A stretch of DNA of 64,000 bases from NCBI GenBank assembly GCA_965262915.1, contig OZ253564.1, positions 4,192,001 to 4,256,000 on the forward strand. The letters run 5' to 3'. Below the pieces are notes generated by a model. The model was not told the DNA's origin. It was given only the letters and a program-made list of their open reading frames with translations, and ran no database searches. The number at the start of each line of letters is the position of its first letter. Within the stretch, counting starts at the first letter, position 1. Below are positions 55,087 through 62,996 of the stretch, piece by piece. The DNA comes from Candidatus Spongiisociaceae bacterium. Its GTDB lineage: Bacteria > Actinomycetota > Acidimicrobiia > Spongiisociales > Spongiisociaceae. A program made the translations under genes and the position numbers.

Positions 55087-57684
55087 ATGTCAAGACCTCT
55101 GATCATCGTTGAGTCGGCGACCAAAGCCCGAACCATCGCCGGCTACCTCGGCAAGGGTTACCGGGTGGAGTCCTCGCAAGGTCACATCCGCGATCTTCCC
55201 AACAACGCCAAACAGATCCCGGCCCGTTACAAGAAGGAGCAGTGGGCCAAGAACTGGGGCGTCGACGTGGACCACGACTTCCGACCGCTCTACATCGTTC
55301 CTCCCGAAAGCCGTAAGACCGTCCAGACGCTGAAGCGCCTGGTCAAGGAGGCCTCGGAACTGTATCTGGCCACCGACGAGGACCGAGAGGGGGAGGCGAT
55401 CGCCTGGCATCTGGCCGAGGTGCTCAAGCCGAAGGTGCCGATGCGCCGCATGGTGTTCCACGAGATCACCCCCGCCGCGATCCGGCGCGCCCTGGAGAAC
55501 CCGCGCTCCATCAACGACGACCTCGTCGAAGCCCAGGAAGCTCGCCGGACCCTGGACCGCCTGGTCGGCTACGGGGTGTCGCCGGTCCTATGGCGAAAGG
55601 TGAAGCGGGGTTTGTCGGCGGGCCGCGTCCAGAGCGTGGCGGTCCGGTTGGTCGTGGAGCGGGAGCGCCGACGGATCGCTTTCAGGTCGGCGGGGTTCTG
55701 GAGCATCGAAGGGATCTTCGCTACCGCGACCGGGCAGGCCTTCACCGCCGCTCTGGTGGCTGTCGACGGTACCCGCCCCGCGGCCGGCAAGGACTTCAAC
55801 CAACGGGGCGAGTTGACCACTACGAGGGTCCTGCGGCTCGACGAGACCCGGGCCACGTCCCTGGCGGCCCGGATCGAAGGCGGCCGCTACACGGTTCGAT
55901 CGGTGGAGACCAAGCCCTACACCCGCCACCCCTACGCCCCCTTCCGTACCTCGACCCTCCAGCAGGAAGCCTCCCGCAAGCTGCGGTTCGGCGCCTCCCG
56001 GACGATGATCGCCGCCCAGAGGCTCTACGAGCGCGGCCACATCACCTACATGCGGACCGACAGCACCAACCTATCGGAGACGGCCCTGAAGACCGCCCGC
56101 TCGGAGATCGCCAAGCGCTACGGATCCCAGTACCTGGCCACCAAGCCACGCCGCTACGTCAACAAGGTGAAGAACGCCCAGGAGGCCCACGAGGCCATCC
56201 GCCCGGCCGGCGATTCGTGGAGGACGCCGCAGGAGATATCCGCCCTGGTCGGCGACCGCGACCAGCAGCGCGTGTACCGCCTGATCTGGACCCGGACCCT
56301 CGCCTCCCAGATGGCGCCGGCCCGCGGCATGAGAACCCGCGTCCGGCTCGGTGGCCCGATCACCGGGGGCACCGATGTCGAGTTCGGTGCGTCGGGCCGG
56401 ACGGTGAGCTTCCCCGGATTCCTGCGGGTATACGTCGAGGGGCAGGACGATCCCAAGGCCGATGTCGACGACCGCGAGCGCCATCTCCCCTCGCTGCAGG
56501 TGGATGATCGGGTCGACGCCCGGGACATCGCGGCCAAAGGACACGAGACCCAACCACCCTATCGTTTCACCGAAGCCTCGCTCATCAAGGAACTCGAGGA
56601 CAAGGGCATCGGCCGCCCTTCCACCTACGCTTCGATCATATCCACGATCATCGGGCGCGGCTACGTCTTCAAGAAGGGGACCGCCCTGGTCCCGTCCATC
56701 ACCGGCTTCGCCACCACCCAGCTTCTCGAGCGTCACTTCGAATACCTGGTCGACTTCGGCTTCACCGCCCGGATGGAGGACGACCTCGACAAGATCGCGC
56801 GCGGCGAGGAGGACAAGGTTCCCTGGTTGCACCGTTTCTTCCACGGCAACGGAACCCGGGGACTCCACTACCTCGTGTCGAGCGAGCATGTGGACGGGAT
56901 CGATCCCCGCCAGATCAACTTCAGCGTGGGCGAGGACCCCCAGGGGGTTCCGGTGGTGGTCCGGGTGGGTAAGTACGGTCCCTACGTCGCACGGGGCGAC
57001 GACCGGGCCTCGGTGCCCGAGGACCTGGTGCCCGATGAACTGTCGCTGGAGCGGGCCATCGAGATGCTGGAGGCCCCCCAGGGGGACAAGATCCTGGGAA
57101 CCGACCCCGACTCGGGCCTCACCGTCCTGGCCCGGATCGGCCGCTACGGACCCTACGTGCAGCTCGGCGAGGATATCCAAGGGGCCGGGAAGAAGCCGAA
57201 GCGGGCTGGGCTGTTCCGCAACATGGTCATCGACGAGTTGGCCCTCGACGACGCCCTGCGGCTCCTCTCCCTCCCCCGCCGGGTCGGCAAGCACCCCGAC
57301 ACGGGTGAGGAGATCGTGGCGGGGAACGGACGATACGGGCCCTATCTGAGGATGGGCAAGACGTACCGGAACCTCGACGACCCGCGGCGGCTTTTCGATA
57401 TCACGCTCGAATCAGCGGTCAAGGTTCTCAGCGCCCCCAAACAGACCCGAGGCCGGGCGGCCGCACCCCCGCTCAAGGAACTCGGCAACGATCCGGTGTC
57501 GGGAGGAAAGGTCGTCGTCAAGACGGGCCGGTACGGACCCTACGTGACCGACGGGATCGTCAATGCGTCAGTACGCCAAGACGCTCTCGAGCAACTCGAC
57601 CTCGAGCAGGCTGCCGTCCTACTGGCCCGCCGGAGAGAGAAGCTGAAAGAACAGGGCAAGTGGCCCCCCAAGAAGCGCCGGTAG
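55087..57684 (+). CDS. topA: DNA topoisomerase I with actinobacterial C-terminal repeats
   Basis: IVES, ATDEDREGE, SAGRVQ, ITYMRTD, GRYGPY repeats. Confidence 0.97.
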   Translation: MSRPLIIVESATKARTIAGYLGKGYRVESSQGHIRDLPNNAKQIPARYKKEQWAKNWGVDVDHDFRPLYIVPPESRKTVQTLKRLVKEASELYLATDEDREGEAIAWHLAEVLKPKVPMRRMVFHEITPAAIRRALENPRSINDDLVEAQEARRTLDRLVGYGVSPVLWRKVKRGLSAGRVQSVAVRLVVERERRRIAFRSAGFWSIEGIFATATGQAFTAALVAVDGTRPAAGKDFNQRGELTTTRVLRLDETRATSLAARIEGGRYTVRSVETKPYTRHPYAPFRTSTLQQEASRKLRFGASRTMIAAQRLYERGHITYMRTDSTNLSETALKTARSEIAKRYGSQYLATKPRRYVNKVKNAQEAHEAIRPAGDSWRTPQEISALVGDRDQQRVYRLIWTRTLASQMAPARGMRTRVRLGGPITGGTDVEFGASGRTVSFPGFLRVYVEGQDDPKADVDDRERHLPSLQVDDRVDARDIAAKGHETQPPYRFTEASLIKELEDKGIGRPSTYASIISTIIGRGYVFKKGTALVPSITGFATTQLLERHFEYLVDFGFTARMEDDLDKIARGEEDKVPWLHRFFHGNGTRGLHYLVSSEHVDGIDPRQINFSVGEDPQGVPVVVRVGKYGPYVARGDDRASVPEDLVPDELSLERAIEMLEAPQGDKILGTDPDSGLTVLARIGRYGPYVQLGEDIQGAGKKPKRAGLFRNMVIDELALDDALRLLSLPRRVGKHPDTGEEIVAGNGRYGPYLRMGKTYRNLDDPRRLFDITLESAVKVLSAPKQTRGRAAAPPLKELGNDPVSGGKVVVKTGRYGPYVTDGIVNASVRQDALEQLDLEQAAVLLARRREKLKEQGKWPPKKRR

Positions 57685-57756
57685 GAGAGCGGCTAGGGTT
57701 ACCGGGGAAGCAACGAGGTTCACAGTGCCGAGTCCGGTGCCTCTGGCCGGATCGGA

Positions 57757-57915
57757 CAACCGGATGACCTCGACATCGGCCCTGTGATGACGTCGGATCC
57801 TTAAGTCCCCGGAGACCAGAGGCCAACCCGGCTCCACTGCTCTCGCGTAGATCCGATGGTCGGCGGGATCGCCCGAAGACGACCGAGGCAGCGAGCACGC
57901 GGCCACTACGAGGAC
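57757..57915 (-). pseudogene. C-terminal remnant of a VapC (PIN) toxin
   Basis: SLPRSSSGDPADHRIYARAVEPGWPLVSGDLRIRRH resembles the VapC22-type LP..FPGDPADRLIYATA....LVT.D motif; N-terminal part missing. Confidence 0.72.
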
Positions 57916-58054
57916 CGGCCGGTCCTCACGTGGGTACCAGTCGCGCCACCGTGCCACCATGCTTTGTGATCTTGATCTCCGCGCCCGTTGCTACGTCGTT
58001 AAGCAGGCTCAGGATCCGAGCCTTCGCTTGAGTAACGGTCAACTACATCAACAT
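57916..58054 (-). pseudogene. Phd/YefM-type (VapB) antitoxin pseudogene
   Basis: Hand translation MLM*LTVTQAKARILSLLNDVATGAEIKITKHGGTVARLVPT*GP with two in-frame stops. Confidence 0.78.
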
Positions 58055-58079
58055 ATGTCTGTCATAGTAGGTCAGTCCG

Positions 58080-58553
58080 TTATCGACTCTGTCCAGCCTT
58101 GCATAGATCTCTTCTATCCAGGAGACGTCTGTGACTGTCCTTGAAGCTCTTATACATGAGAGTACTGTATATTCGACCTCTCCGGCCGTCAACCAGGCCC
58201 TTCTTTTTAAAATCCGTCTGTAGCGCCCTATCATTGGAGTATAGGAGCCTAGCAGGGCTGATCTGGGCTAGGGCTATAATGTGTGGATCGTCCGAGATAT
58301 AACCTCCCAAATCTTGGAGCTCTGTCGTCTTTCGATCCACTTCATCATCATCAAATGATAGGGCTTTCCCCGCAAGTAGGGCCTGTCTTATCCACTCCCA
58401 TATCGGAGTCCGGTAGAGCTCTTCACGGAGTTTCCCACCGACTACGAGCGGTAGTTTCCCAGAATCAACGCGATCAAGGAATCTCGTACCAGCCTCATGC
58501 CGATCGGTTCCTTTGAGCTCGTGAGCCACGTTCGCGTCGATAATCGCGCACAT
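58080..58553 (-). CDS. PIN-domain nuclease-like protein
   Basis: IIDANV, REEL, SDDPHIIALA, YSNDRAL acidic motif set; ATG overlaps the ATPase stop (TGATG). Confidence 0.78.
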   Translation of the reverse strand: MCAIIDANVAHELKGTDRHEAGTRFLDRVDSGKLPLVVGGKLREELYRTPIWEWIRQALLAGKALSFDDDEVDRKTTELQDLGGYISDDPHIIALAQISPARLLYSNDRALQTDFKKKGLVDGRRGRIYSTLMYKSFKDSHRRLLDRRDLCKAGQSR

Positions 58554-59914
58554 CAGAGTCCGATAGACCTCCGGCTCTCCTTCATGAAGAACCGGCGATA
58601 ACCTGTCGGAGCCCCCAAAATGTTGCCTTCCTCATCGAATCTTAGCGAATGGATGCGTACGCCTGAGTCAGCGCGCTCGAAGAACAACACCGATACATCA
58701 TCAGGAGTCAACGAAGATGCCCCATCTCGCACATCCATACGGATACGATCGATAATGTGGTCGCTGTGTGTCTCGATTACCAGCTGCCTATCACGGTCGG
58801 CCTCCTGACAGAACAAGCTGCCGAGGGCAGCCTGCGCGCTGGGGTGTAGGTGAACCTCGGGTTGCTGCAACAGGAGTACGTTCGGTGCGTCCTCCCTCAA
58901 GAGCTCGGTCACCAATGGAAGTACCTGGCTTATTCCGTAGCCTACGTCGATCAGATTGTGTCGTGTCCCCTTCCTCTCCGAGGTGGACTGTCGGATCTGG
59001 ATCTGGAACGGCCCACCATCCCTCTCACCGAGTTGTTTGATAAGTATCTCATCGAATAGCCCGGCACCTCTCCCAAAGCCCTCGACCCTACTCCGGAGTT
59101 CTTCCCAGTTAGAGTTGTCCTGGGAGTAAAGGCTGGCGAGATACATCGGAATATAGTCGCCTTCTGGATCCCATGTCGGTCGGGATGGATCATAGGTTCT
59201 GTGGGGCTTAGATCGGACCGGTGCACTGGCAAAGGGGCGTCTCCAAGGAGGCCCATCACAGGAGTGAACCAGTCTCGTGATGGCATCTAGATCTCGCTCT
59301 GTGAAAGCCGGTGAGCCTGATAGGCGTTCGAGAGCACCTTCTCCCGGCACATCCTCGTGGAGATATGGGTGCAAATAGAAGAAGACCGGAGTTAGATAGT
59401 CTTCGAACTCTAACCTACCACCAACCCGTACAAACCGTGGATGTTGATTTATTCTCTGCTCCCAGCTACCTCTGGCTGTCGACAATCGGATCCGATCAAC
59501 ATGATTCCGGTTATAGATCTCCTCAATGGAGTTTTCTCCATGAGAGTAGAACCTCCGTATAGGGATCGGCCTCGTACCTATTTTCTTGAATGTAGTTTCG
59601 AAATACAGCGGGTTCTCATGGATTCCTATATCCTCATCTTTGTGGAAGACTTCAAAGCCTCCTATAAAGCTATCGGTTAGCGAACCGGACTCATTATTGT
59701 CATACGTTATTTCACGAAAGCTTCCTAGATCGTAAGGTTCCTCTTTGAAGTCCGGTATCCGCTGCCCATAGGCAACATCCCAGAGTGCCCTAATCAAGGC
59801 CAAGAAGGAGGTCTTACCTGTGCTGTTCTCACCGATGAGCAGGGTCAATGGGGCCAGACGGGCGGTCTGCTTCTCGTGAAAGCAGCGGTAATTGCCAAGC
59901 GTGATGCTGTCCAT
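58553..59914 (-). CDS. ABC-type ATPase (AAA_15/AAA_21-like, DUF3696-like tail)
   Basis: NYRCF, GENSTGKT, DVGYGISQ, LLLQQPEVHLHP, IETHSDH. Confidence 0.88.
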   Translation of the reverse strand: MDSITLGNYRCFHEKQTARLAPLTLLIGENSTGKTSFLALIRALWDVAYGQRIPDFKEEPYDLGSFREITYDNNESGSLTDSFIGGFEVFHKDEDIGIHENPLYFETTFKKIGTRPIPIRRFYSHGENSIEEIYNRNHVDRIRLSTARGSWEQRINQHPRFVRVGGRLEFEDYLTPVFFYLHPYLHEDVPGEGALERLSGSPAFTERDLDAITRLVHSCDGPPWRRPFASAPVRSKPHRTYDPSRPTWDPEGDYIPMYLASLYSQDNSNWEELRSRVEGFGRGAGLFDEILIKQLGERDGGPFQIQIRQSTSERKGTRHNLIDVGYGISQVLPLVTELLREDAPNVLLLQQPEVHLHPSAQAALGSLFCQEADRDRQLVIETHSDHIIDRIRMDVRDGASSLTPDDVSVLFFERADSGVRIHSLRFDEEGNILGAPTGYRRFFMKESRRSIGL

Positions 59915-59980
59915 TGTTCTGCTCTCCTACGGCTCCGAGCGGCTAAGGCCGAGTCGCCCAAGCGTATCATTCCCCTGTAT

Positions 59981-60337
59981 CTACACCACAACGGTTTGTC
60001 GGGTGAGGTGTTTGGTGATCCGACCCAACACCGCGGGTAGGTCTCTGAAGAAGAGGTCGTCTGCCTTGGCAGTTGTGCATCTGGATCCGATCAGTGTCCA
60101 ATCGATTCGGTCTTTGGCTGCGATCGTCAAGGCAAGCGCTTCGTGCCAGGTTACGAACGTGCCGTCGGTGGTCTGCATGAGACGGTCCATCATGAGGTGG
60201 TTGACCGAGATGACCCGTAATATGAAACCTTCAACCTCTACCATCTCGGGTGGGTCCACACCCAACAGCGTCCGGGTCGGTACCTCGATAGCGATCTCCT
60301 CATCCCCGGAGCCGCAAACCCAATGCCGTCCGTCGCG
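59981..60337 (-). pseudogene. 5'-truncated gene, possibly the C-terminal half of a nucleotidyltransferase-like protein
   Basis: Open frame RDGRHW..IAIEVP..L..VISVNHLMMDRL..IDW begins directly after the upstream gene's stop, with no convincing start or RBS. Confidence 0.45.
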
Positions 60338-61450
60338 CTACTCGACCGGCTCTCCCGAGCCTCGCGCACCTGCTCCGAGCGCAAGGACAGCCAATCCTAC
60401 GCCCGCCCCTACGTAGGGGACCAGCAACAGGACACCCAGCGGAATCGCAGGCAGGACGAACGCGCCGTAGGAACTCAACCGGCCGCGGCCGAGGAGCCGT
60501 CCCAATGTGATCAGCACCGGTACCGGTGCGGTCGACACCAGGTAGAGCAATGCCAGCAGCACCACCGGAAACACCGCCGCACCCGCCAACGCCGACCCGA
60601 TCGCCACCTTCGGTGGACCAAGTAGTACACCGGCGATCGCAACGGCTACGGGTAGTACCAGGATGCCCAGGTGGGCCACTCCGCGCAGTAGTGACCGCAC
60701 CGGGTGGTGGGCCAGGTACGTAACCGATCGTTCGACCTCCTCGGGCCGCAACCGGATCCTGAGAATGCCGTAGGCGAGCAGCAACACGAAGGCAATGAAC
60801 CCGACCATCAGTACAACAGCCCGGAACCTGAAATCAGGAGAGAGGGGAAGGCGACGGACCACGGTGCCGCCGATGACCGCATCGGAGTGGATGATCGCCT
60901 CACGGCTGCTCCTGTATCCCAGGTCCTCGGTTATCCGGGCGTCTTCGAGCACCAGCATCCTTCCCACGGTCATCTCCACATCACGCCCCACCGAACCGGC
61001 AATGGTGGTGGAACCGAACGTGCGGCCGCCCATGTCGTGGCCCACGTCACCCCAGGCGAGCAACGATCTCGACCAGATCAGGGAATCGCCGACGATAGAC
61101 CCGGCGAGGCGGATGTCCCGGCCCAGACCGACCACGTCTCCTCCCACCTCGGAGGCGATCTCGAGGTCCACCCCGGCCAACCGGACCGAACCGTCCACCA
61201 CACCCGTGATGCTTGCTGTAGTGGCGAACCCGATGACGTCGCCCTCCACCCGACCGGAGACCACCAGTCGCTCGGTGGCCAGCACGACCAGATCACCCTC
61301 GATGGTTCCCGCGATCCTCACTACGGAGCCGGCCACGTAGAGAGCCTCCTCCACCACTTCACCTTCCCGGATGAGGAAGATGCCCGCCGAAGCCGTCCGT
61401 AGGGCCTGGGGTACGTCGGCGGCCACCAGCAGCAGCAGGGCCAACCCCAT
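60338..61450 (-). CDS. Bactofilin-like beta-helix repeat protein with C-terminal membrane helices
   Basis: Repeated V/I.G.V.GD units, signal-like N-terminus, about 5 TM segments. Confidence 0.75.
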   Translation of the reverse strand: MGLALLLLVAADVPQALRTASAGIFLIREGEVVEEALYVAGSVVRIAGTIEGDLVVLATERLVVSGRVEGDVIGFATTASITGVVDGSVRLAGVDLEIASEVGGDVVGLGRDIRLAGSIVGDSLIWSRSLLAWGDVGHDMGGRTFGSTTIAGSVGRDVEMTVGRMLVLEDARITEDLGYRSSREAIIHSDAVIGGTVVRRLPLSPDFRFRAVVLMVGFIAFVLLLAYGILRIRLRPEEVERSVTYLAHHPVRSLLRGVAHLGILVLPVAVAIAGVLLGPPKVAIGSALAGAAVFPVVLLALLYLVSTAPVPVLITLGRLLGRGRLSSYGAFVLPAIPLGVLLLVPYVGAGVGLAVLALGAGARGSGEPVE

Positions 61451-61482
61451 CCCGACGGGGCCGGCTACACGGCTCCGGCCAC

Positions 61483-61556
61483 TAGTGGTCTGTCTGCAAG
61501 ATGATCGAGCGCGCCCTGCCTGCATACCACGCCGCCATTTCACAGACAGACCACTA
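61483..61556. mobile_element. MITE family A, internally deleted copy in opposite orientation
   Basis: TA[GTGGTCTGTCTG ... CAGACAGACCAC]TA perfect 12-bp TIR; reverse complement begins GTGGTCTGTCTGTGAAATGGCGGCGTGGTATGC like copies 1-2. Confidence 0.85.
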
Positions 61557-62996
61557 ACCACCGGCCTGGGCCAGGAACCCGAGGAGCGGACTTGGGAAGA
61601 TCCCGAACACCACCGTGGCGGCTGCCGAGAAGAGCAGCACCCAGCGGACGTTCGCCGTCGGCACCACATCCGCCCCGCTCCCCTCGCCGGGCCGGAAGTA
61701 CATGAGCACCACCAGGCGGAGGTAGAAGAAGAAGGCGGCCACCGAGGATGCCAGCCCCACGATCACCAGCCATTCGTACCCGCCCTGCCAGGCGGCACTG
61801 AAGACCTGGAACTTTCCGATGAACCCGGTGGTGAGCGGCATCCCGGACATGGCGATCATCAGCGTGGCCAGGACGGCCGCCACCACCGGGGAGCGCCGCC
61901 CCAGCCCCCGGTAGTCCTCGAAGCGGCTACCGGACGTGGCGGGGCCGCTCACGGCGGTGACGGCGGCGAAGGCGCCCACCAGCATCACCGCGTAGGTGGC
62001 CAGGTAGAACACCACCCCGTCTCGCCCCTCGATGCCTGCTGTCATGCCCGTGAGGATGAACCCGGCGTGCGCCACACCCGAGTAGGCCAGCATCCGCCGC
62101 ACGTCGGACTGCTGGATTGCCAGGAGGGTTCCGAGCGTCACCGACACGGCGGCCATGACCGCCACGCCGTCACCCCACGGTCCCCGGAACCGATCGAATC
62201 CGATGAACAGGATGTTGATGAGCGCCGCGAAACCGCCCACCTTGGCGGCGGCCGCCATGAAACCAACCACCCCCGAGGGGGCGCCCTGGTACACGTCCGG
62301 AGCCCAGGAGTGGAACGGCGCCGCGGTCACCTTGAAACCCAACCCCACCACCAGCAACGCCATGCCGATGAGGATCACCGCCGGCCGCCACACATGGACG
62401 CTCGCCAGGAAACCCGCCGCCGCGACGATGTTGGTGGTCCCGGTTCCGGCGTAGGTGAGCGCCCCGCCGTAGATGAAGATGGCCGACGCGAAGGCGCCCA
62501 GCAGGAAGTACTTCATGGCCGCTTCGTCGCCTGCCTGGGAATCGCGCACTATGCCGGCCAGCACGTAAAGGGCGATCGATCCTATCTCCAGCGCTACGAA
62601 CACCATGACGAGATCGGCAGAGGCACCCATGAGCATGAACCCGGCGGTGGACACCAGCACCAGGCTGAGGCCTTCGGCCATCCGGCGTCCGAGCCCTACC
62701 AGCATCTCCCAGGCGGTGAGGGTCCCGAGCACCGCCACGACCAGCAGGACAACCCGCGCATGCACGGAAAGATGATGGAGGAAGAGAGTCCCGCCGAAGG
62801 ACAGCCCGGCGCCGTCCACCTCCAACCTGTACCACTGCCCCCCGATCGCCACCGCCACGGCCAGGTAGGTGACGGCGGCCAGCCATCCGTGGACCCGCGG
62901 TGACGGCCGGGCGAACACGTCGACCATCAGCACCGCTACCGCCCCCATCACCAGCAGCATCTCCGGGGCGATAGCGAGGTACGAGACGTCGGTCAC
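61554..62996 (-). CDS. nuoN: NADH-quinone oxidoreductase subunit N
   Basis: EAAMKYFLLG, FKVTAAPFHSWAPDVYQGAP, RMLAYS. Confidence 0.95.
   Translation of the reverse strand: MTDVSYLAIAPEMLLVMGAVAVLMVDVFARPSPRVHGWLAAVTYLAVAVAIGGQWYRLEVDGAGLSFGGTLFLHHLSVHARVVLLVVAVLGTLTAWEMLVGLGRRMAEGLSLVLVSTAGFMLMGASADLVMVFVALEIGSIALYVLAGIVRDSQAGDEAAMKYFLLGAFASAIFIYGGALTYAGTGTTNIVAAAGFLASVHVWRPAVILIGMALLVVGLGFKVTAAPFHSWAPDVYQGAPSGVVGFMAAAAKVGGFAALINILFIGFDRFRGPWGDGVAVMAAVSVTLGTLLAIQQSDVRRMLAYSGVAHAGFILTGMTAGIEGRDGVVFYLATYAVMLVGAFAAVTAVSGPATSGSRFEDYRGLGRRSPVVAAVLATLMIAMSGMPLTTGFIGKFQVFSAAWQGGYEWLVIVGLASSVAAFFFYLRLVVLMYFRPGEGSGADVVPTANVRWVLLFSAAATVVFGIFPSPLLGFLAQAGG

Follow-up and report, generated by a model that had tools for sequence, protein, structure and literature searches.

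An ABC ATPase and VapC-like PIN protein pair from Acidimicrobiia: a candidate two-gene conflict module akin to HEC-03 and Menshen

We investigated a stretch of 64,000 nucleotides (the window) from the genome of a Candidatus Spongiisociaceae bacterium, a member of the Acidimicrobiia (GenBank assembly GCA_965262915.1, contig OZ253564.1, positions 4,192,001 to 4,256,000), in which two adjacent genes on the minus strand encode an ABC ATPase and a small PIN protein. An earlier note on the same DNA, made from the letters alone, had singled out this pair as a candidate defence or toxin system. The coordinates of the two genes, taken from the list of open reading frames (ORFs), and those of the features in and around them are gathered in Table 1. 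Both frames are intact, and the one-base overlap that had been noted is there: at the junction, which reads CTC TGA TG TGC, the stop codon of the ATPase gene and the start codon of the PIN gene share a single base. The pair sits, as also described, in an AT-richer block between topA on the plus strand and the convergent nuoN region on the minus strand, where two NuoN/NuoM-like genes (Proton_antipo_M, 1e-62 and 5e-59) flank the island. A sliding-window profile confirmed the dip: G+C falls to 0.47–0.57 across ~57750–60250, against 0.64–0.70 on both flanking sides, and it is 0.52 in the pair itself against 0.66 in the remaining window. The two genes are not chance ORFs, since the PIN protein has 945 relatives (E ≤ 1e-3, word-indexed search) and orthologues of both genes, 59–68% identical, stand at the same locus in two congeners.

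Table 1. Features of the ATPase–PIN locus, in coordinates of the window.
Feature	Position	Strand	Basis
OLD/NsnB-type ABC ATPase with DUF3696 C-terminal tail, 453 aa	58553..59914	-	ORF list; Pfam and PADLOC
Walker A, GENSTGKTS, residues 28-36	59807..59833	-	read from sequence
Hypervariable insert, residues 88-228, proposed sensing surface	59231..59653	-	column conservation
Walker B / D-loop, LLLQQPEVHLHP, residues 347-358, QQ replacing the usual acidic dyad	58841..58876	-	sequence
DUF3696 tail, residues 398-453, proposed PIN docking site	58556..58723	-	Pfam, analogy
Single-domain VapC-like PIN, 157 aa, with D6, E45, D89, D108, D114	58080..58553	-	ORF list; AlphaFold2, VIA-align, alignment
TGATG stop/start overlap	58551..58555	-	junction sequence
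Low-G+C block: pair and two small flanking frames	57750..60250	.	G+C profile
topA	55087-57684	+	Topoisom_bac 5e-115, Toprim, C-terminal repeats
Phd/YefM-type antitoxin remnant, N-terminal 38 codons then stop	57929..58042	-	Pfam PhdYeFM_antitox, E 4.9e-6
VapC-C-terminus-like stretch, possible toxin remnant	57619..57960	-	by eye in translation; weak
Open frame upstream of ATPase, 118 codons (94 from first start codon)	59984..60337	-	ESM Atlas leads
443-aa gene between island and nuoN	60338-61669	-	weak bactofilin-like match, E 0.012

Scanned directly against Pfam, PADLOC, NCBIfam and PHROGs, the small protein gave no match, and a phmmer search of PDB sequences returned nothing useful; a profile of its family retrieved a single VapC from the PDB (E 0.61). 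A profile built from 25 relatives detected 1,884 representatives of 50%-identity clusters, 1,288 of them at E ≤ 1e-10, and 24 of the 25 relatives match Pfam PIN (PF01850) at E ≤ 1, the best at 4e-7. The AlphaFold2 model computed from the family alignment has a mean pLDDT of 91.8. Its best Foldseek matches in the PDB are 1w8i (E 5.4e-4), then VapC2, FitB and VapC11, and VIA-align superposes it on the VapC structure 5x3t_B over 122 residues with a Z of 9.9 and an rmsd of 3.1; the top Z values among VapC structures are 9.9, 9.4 and 9.3, and PIN proteins occupy the 50 matches listed. Across 254 aligned sequences the acidic residues are kept (D6 in 249, E45 in 253, D89 in 254, D108 in 250 and D114 in 252), and the D-E-D-D residues fall at strand ends and helix starts, consistent with the secondary structure of the model. 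Fold model, structural matches and alignment agree with the earlier proposal of a PIN protein with its acidic motifs: the small protein is predicted to adopt a PIN fold in which the catalytic acidic set is kept. The same alignment has other near-invariant positions, C2 (248), H91 (253) and C151 (246), while H141 is kept in 196 sequences; a metal site or a disulfide may be made up by these four residues.

The ATPase matches AAA_15 (1.4e-20) and AAA_21 (1.6e-18) in Pfam and ends in a DUF3696 tail, detected on residues 402–438 at 9.6e-5 (23 bits, for a cut-off of 22). Its best PADLOC match is NsnB (7.3e-46), followed by PDC-M55A (1.5e-33), HEC-03B (3.6e-25) and AriA (1.3e-23); PtuA matches at ~1e-10, confined to the N-terminus. 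All the motifs previously listed could be located, namely Walker A, in which G28, N30, S31, G33, K34, T35 and S36 are invariant across 39 sequences, the ABC signature DVGYGISQ (residues 323–330), the D-loop and the H-loop ETHSD (residues 381–385). The earlier note had also remarked on a missing acidic residue in the Walker B region, and both acidic residues are in fact absent. Two glutamines, Q350 and Q351, stand just before PEVHLHP, where ABC ATPases have their Walker B aspartate and catalytic glutamate, and they are invariant (78 of 78 ATPase sequences). Among all loci then gathered, 92 of the 93 '..PExHLHP' contexts have QQ, the lone EQ being that of the genome's own ATPase of HEC-03, a named system considered below. 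Outside residues 88–228, the core and tail of the ATPase have a mean top-residue share of 0.74–0.83, against 0.35 within this hypervariable insert, where a share of at least 0.9 is reached in 5 of 141 columns.

When one genome per species was scanned, 350 loci proved to encode a relative of the PIN protein; the best 80 were analysed. At 79 of them an ATPase homologue (47–68% identity, tblastn) ends just before the PIN gene, and at the single locus without one, only 121 bases are available upstream. The loci are drawn from at least 12 phyla, and at the 79 paired ones the two genes are in most cases 3 nt (37 loci), 2 nt (9) or -1 nt (5) apart. Likewise, the more divergent PIN copies (37–51% identity) of five related genomes have the ATPase directly upstream in 8 cases out of 8. 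The conserved pairing expected of such a system is thus borne out, and it is near-obligate. No third gene is conserved across the 79 loci, the top neighbour cluster being a generic short-chain dehydrogenase (14/79). We also examined the nearest upstream and downstream ORF at each locus, after removal of six Caldilineaceae loci that were near-duplicates and of three other ORFs. In the resulting 141 ORFs, 107 families were found, and the commonest Pfam families are metabolic, with adh_short in 7 and GMC oxidoreductase in 5. Since no third gene is conserved and the neighbours are mostly metabolic, the ATPase–PIN module is self-contained. In a few genomes, a second copy of the module is found in tandem or closely spaced, directly upstream of the first (L002:2761-4573, L080:2509-4647, G014:C1:2023343-2031439); the two ATPases are 35–46% identical and QQ is present in both. 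In addition, one protein found in a single record (P0303, 1325 aa) has a PIN of the family fused N-terminally to N6_Mtase (PF02384), Eco57I (PF07669) and PF20473, and looks like a restriction–modification enzyme.

Contact between the two proteins was assessed by structure prediction. The full-length ATPase and the PIN protein, modelled as a 1:1 complex, obtained a median score of 0.55 (0.56, 0.55 and 0.24 in the individual runs), and the best of three controls obtained 0.04. In the calibration of the tool, 58 of 80 solved complexes and 2 of 110 mismatched pairs attained the mark, and at 0.60 or less stand only 7 of those 80 solved complexes together with both mismatches. Contact agreement was at least 79% and partner pLDDT at least 80 in these runs, which give no interface. 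Three singleton proteins (P0300, P0302 and P0235) join a part of the ATPase to the PIN; these may result from read-through in gene calling.

ABC ATPases paired with PIN proteins have a named and tested representative. In the available excerpts of Payne et al. (bioRxiv 10.1101/2024.01.29.577857), HEC-03 (Hma-embedded candidate 03) is an ABC ATPase with a VapC-like PIN protein, which cut plaquing for at least two phages and for which both genes were required; as far as these excerpts go, its authors leave undecided whether ATP binding or hydrolysis matters. The earlier note had taken the pairing for one outside any named system. This was wrong, because HEC-03, Menshen and the BREX-survey literature precede it; what is new here is the family, the ABC ATPase–PIN kind being already known. 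PADLOC represents HEC-03 by two models, PDLC04147 (PIN) and PDLC04148 (ATPase). A canonical HEC-03 pair is present in the same genome at ~2.22 Mb (L082:472-2456, G000:C1 ~2220657-2222641), outside the window. It is composed of a 502-aa ATPase (AAA_21, AAA_15, DUF3696; Walker B EQ) and a 160-aa PIN protein whose genes overlap by 4 nt; the HEC-03 models match it at 8.9e-140 (ATPase, positions 1–451 of 458) and 3.0e-27 (PIN), and its small protein is modelled as a PIN fold (pLDDT 94.9, Z 10.4 to VapC21). In the own-genome search, the HEC-03 ATPase model also matches the window ATPase, at 1.5e-21 and on positions 283–432 of 458 only, and hhalign aligns the window ATPase with that of the own-genome HEC-03 over residues 225–439, tail included (99.8%, 206 columns, 30% identity). 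A profile comparison of the two PIN families aligned 21 columns with 28% probability. An EAGxRFxxW-like motif common to both was rejected as evidence of homology, as it occupies different places in the fold. A conserved terminal cysteine (C152) is found in the PIN family of HEC-03 too.

In layout the two pairs are alike: on the same strand, an ABC ATPase of ~450–500 aa with a DUF3696-type tail precedes a VapC-like PIN protein of ~160 aa, and the catalytic glutamate after Walker B is absent in both. They differ within Walker B, which has EQ in the genome's own HEC-03 copy and QQ in the window pair. At the level of PADLOC models, the ATPase is best matched by NsnB and partially by HEC-03, and the PIN protein is matched by no model. 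Judged from these sequence comparisons, the window pair would be a sister family of HEC-03 with the same architecture and, by the available models, not a HEC-03 member.

The other close relative is Menshen. In the available excerpts of Li et al. (PMC12065111), this system comprises a ParB-DUF262 sensor (NsnA), an ABC ATPase with a DUF3696 tail (NsnB) and NsnC, an inactive PIN with a nuclease. The same excerpts report AlphaFold 3 models in which the DUF3696 tails of NsnB hold the PIN-like domain of NsnC, suggest 2:1 as the relevant form of the complex, and write the Walker B motif as hhhhDE, with EN in NsnB; they also describe a survey seeded on DUF262, so that pairs devoid of NsnA were out of its reach. 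The window ATPase shares with NsnB, its best PADLOC match, the ABC and DUF3696 layout and the absence of the catalytic glutamate from Walker B (QQ in place of EN), and NsnC, like the window partner, begins with a PIN-like domain. In contrast to NsnC, in which an inactive PIN is followed by a C-terminal nuclease, the window partner is one PIN domain with catalytic residues. As for NsnA, no DUF262 appears among the 25 commonest of the 107 neighbour families, and the four GmrSD_N (DUF262) genes of the genome lie at 0.25, 1.44, 2.84 and 4.38 Mb, the nearest being ~128 kb from the pair (4.25 Mb). Membership of Menshen was rejected on the grounds that there is no NsnA at the locus and that the partner is a single domain with active-site residues.

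The earlier comparison with PARIS and Septu holds in that a sensor-type ABC ATPase of the OLD family is combined with a separate nuclease effector. The effector is a TOPRIM/DUF4435 protein (AriB) in PARIS and an HNH protein (PtuB) in Septu, whereas it is a PIN in the window pair, the ATPase of which differs further by its DUF3696 tail and Walker B QQ. We rejected membership of either system, since neither an AriB-type nor a PtuB-type partner is present and the PIN partner has no PADLOC match. The small protein resembles VapC of VapBC in its PIN fold and acidic residues. It differs by the family's own conserved C2, H91 and C151 and N-terminal MCAIxDANV, and where VapBC has a small DNA-binding VapB, the gene upstream here encodes an ABC ATPase of 453 aa. 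To our knowledge, known VapB antitoxins are small DNA-binding proteins and not ABC ATPases of 450 aa. Membership of VapBC was likewise rejected, as a small vapB gene upstream of the PIN gene is absent and the ATPase is found there in 79 of the 80 loci. Among alternative nucleases, the available excerpts of a BREX survey of 594 taxa (PMC12839542) also list pairs of an OLD-type ABC ATPase and a PIN endoRNase. For the exact family, a literature search for a printed description gave the papers cited here only; the supplementary tables of PMC12065111 and PMC12839542 may list it.

Among 41 related genomes, that of the window included, the PIN protein was found in 10 (9 of 24 in the family, 0 of 16 in the other families of the order), some of which carry several copies; the query had no match in 31, including 4 of the 7 other genomes of the genus. 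In two of these four, G001 and G002, which have the most similar topA (81–84% identical), topA stands 196–273 bases from the 443-aa gene and there is no island, whereas the two congeners that carry the pair at the same locus (topA 76–77%) have it at a G+C of 0.49–0.54. A FastTree phylogeny of 78 ATPases groups the window ATPase with other Acidimicrobiia copies. The recent insertion into this genome that the earlier note implied was rejected on these two grounds, the locus shared with two congeners and the grouping in the tree. The low G+C is itself widespread: at the 71 loci with 2.5 kb on each side, the pair lies below its flanks in 69 (mean 0.53 against 0.61, a difference of 8.2 points), in different phyla and also where inheritance of the pair seems to have been vertical. 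Because 69 of 71 loci show it and the position of the pair is shared with congeners, low G+C is a trait of the whole family and not the mark of a fresh arrival in this genome. The locus may have gained the pair once, long ago, with later losses, or may have gained it repeatedly as a hot spot. Two couples of sister ATPases with very short branches (L057/L079 and L054/L026) come from bins labelled Latescibacterota and Gemmatimonadota; they reflect either recent transfer or mis-binned contigs. The best 80 loci are all from metagenome-assembled genomes, chiefly of Chloroflexota (Dehalococcoidia, Caldilineaceae), Latescibacterota, Binatota, Pseudomonadota, Nitrospirota and Acidimicrobiia, and uncultured lineages seem to be the main hosts of the family. 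Taken together, low G+C, patchy presence (10/41) and several as well as tandem copies suggest a mobile or defence-like signature.

We consider it probable, though well short of certain, that the pair is a self-contained two-gene conflict module, made of an ABC ATPase and a PIN protein, related to HEC-03 as a sister family and to Menshen NsnB/NsnC as a relative devoid of the sensor. In such a module, the ATPase would bind ATP and hydrolyse it slowly or not at all, behaving as a clamp or switch, and the DUF3696 tail of an ATPase oligomer would keep the PIN protein inactive, as the NsnB–NsnC models suggest by analogy. The hypervariable insert would recognise an infection cue. This trigger would release or activate the PIN RNase, which would cut cellular or phage RNA (tRNA, rRNA or mRNA) and so bring about the growth arrest of the infected cell. 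The module would most likely be of the abortive-infection type, a defence role that we infer from the likeness to HEC-03, Menshen, PARIS and Septu.

Several observations weigh against this interpretation. The defence role leans on HEC-03, and the HEC-03 PIN model misses the window PIN in its own genome at E ≤ 10; likewise, the HEC-03 models are matched by none of the 25 members of the window-PIN family at E ≤ 1. The window's own PIN protein is itself without a Pfam match at E ≤ 1, and the predicted contact between ATPase and PIN scores in the weak band. Few of the 141 neighbours are defence-like (AAA_15/AAA_21 5, DUF1156 2, DUF499 2, DUF4143 2), and with neighbours that are mostly metabolic, the enrichment in defence islands that the earlier note had envisaged is not demonstrated. 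The PIN protein matched none of 72,556 plasmids and 50,697 phages. The phylum labels on the ATPase tree require 17 changes, for a minimum of 11 and a mean of 37.3 when shuffled, and are thus largely clustered by phylum; the pair is less like a freshly mobile cassette than its low G+C hints.

The main rival to a defence module, with which it is compatible, is a toxin–antitoxin-like addiction module: the ATPase would be the large proteic antitoxin of a VapC-type toxin, and the pair would be kept by selfish persistence with no role in phage defence. The VapC-like PIN, the solitude of the pair among housekeeping genes at most loci, the several copies in some genomes and the Phd/YefM remnant that adjoins the pair in the window all suit this explanation, whereas a hypervariable insert in a conserved ATPase suits a sensor more than a plain inhibitor. 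Moreover, the ATPase is unlike small DNA-binding VapB, a point made of HEC-03 too in the excerpts of its description, and HEC-03, a relative, required both genes for defence (bioRxiv 10.1101/2024.01.29.577857). We therefore hold an addiction module to be unlikely, without dismissing it. A low probability is likewise given to the ATPase having permanently lost both Walker B acidic residues to become a pure sensor of nucleotide occupancy, such that a collapse of ATP or nucleotide pools, and not a phage protein, would license the VapC-like RNase; a metal or redox site at C2/H91/C151 might then add a second control.

Another explanation would place the pair within a larger system as an accessory layer of effectors, that system being either BREX-related, restriction–modification, or Menshen with NsnA encoded elsewhere. 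In the excerpts of the BREX survey (PMC12839542), OLD-type ABC ATPase and PIN endoRNase pairs occur in BREX or BREX-related neighbourhoods, and the DUF1156 and DUF499 neighbours counted above, two BLAST clusters that each occur at 7 of the 79 loci, one a DUF1156-type methylase and the other a DUF499-type protein, and the fusion of a PIN relative to methyltransferase domains in P0303 point the same way. However, no such partner adjoins the pair in the window or at most of the 79 loci, and the DUF262 genes of the genome are all distant, which leaves this explanation with little probability. A housekeeping pair for RNA processing or quality control, or a silent relic in this genome, seems very improbable to us. 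Synteny in two congeners and the clustering of the ATPase tree by phylum would fit a housekeeping role or relic, but the PIN query fails in most related genomes (31/41), G001 and G002 lack the island, low G+C is found at 69 of 71 loci and both frames are intact; furthermore, two other public runs, which possibly include the source sample, have contigs that contain the whole 2.6-kb stretch with 0 and 1 differences.

As it stands, the family is large (at least 1,884 clusters at 50% identity), spread over many phyla of uncultured bacteria and missed by the PADLOC v2.0.0 models, so that defence censuses that use these models would not count it; dedicated models would close this gap. The invariant QQ amounts to a natural experiment on the question raised by HEC-03, that of ATP binding versus hydrolysis, and the presence of a canonical HEC-03 and of its putative sister pair in one genome makes a direct comparison possible.

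The earlier note had seen decayed genes on both sides of the pair. This is only in part confirmed. On the left side, the Phd/YefM-type remnant follows the PIN gene downstream; its 26.7 bits fall short of the PhdYeFM_antitox cut-off, 29.8 bits. The VapC-C-terminus-like frame beside it, which is in another frame and runs into the 3' end of topA, has no Pfam match at E ≤ 1; together, positions 57619-58042 of the minus strand are likely a decayed toxin–antitoxin pair. On the right side, decay of the frame at 59984–60337 is not demonstrated. It was without match in Pfam, PADLOC, NCBIfam and PHROG scans, and its ESM Atlas feature matches (0.93–0.96) lead to clusters with DUF2204, DUF6036 or AbiEii in 11–45% of members, so that it is possibly a small nucleotidyltransferase-like gene or the remnant of one, a lead only. 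Both small flanking frames are missing from the same locus in the two congeners that carry the pair.

Rfam gave no match at E ≤ 1 over 57400-60600, the promoter and terminator scan found nothing upstream of the ATPase gene, with counts close to those of shuffled sequence, and a repeat search returned short two-copy matches only. Four short contigs (151–219 letters) within the pair genes, at 100% identity, come from two runs merely guessed to be RNA and do not demonstrate transcription. A 12-nt direct repeat (11/12 identical) is found just past the topA stop codon (57687-57698) and just upstream of the ATPase start codon (59937-59948), so that its copies lie on either side of the pair and of the antitoxin remnant; chance may account for it. 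Finally, the 443-aa gene next to topA is kept across the genus at 52–69% identity.

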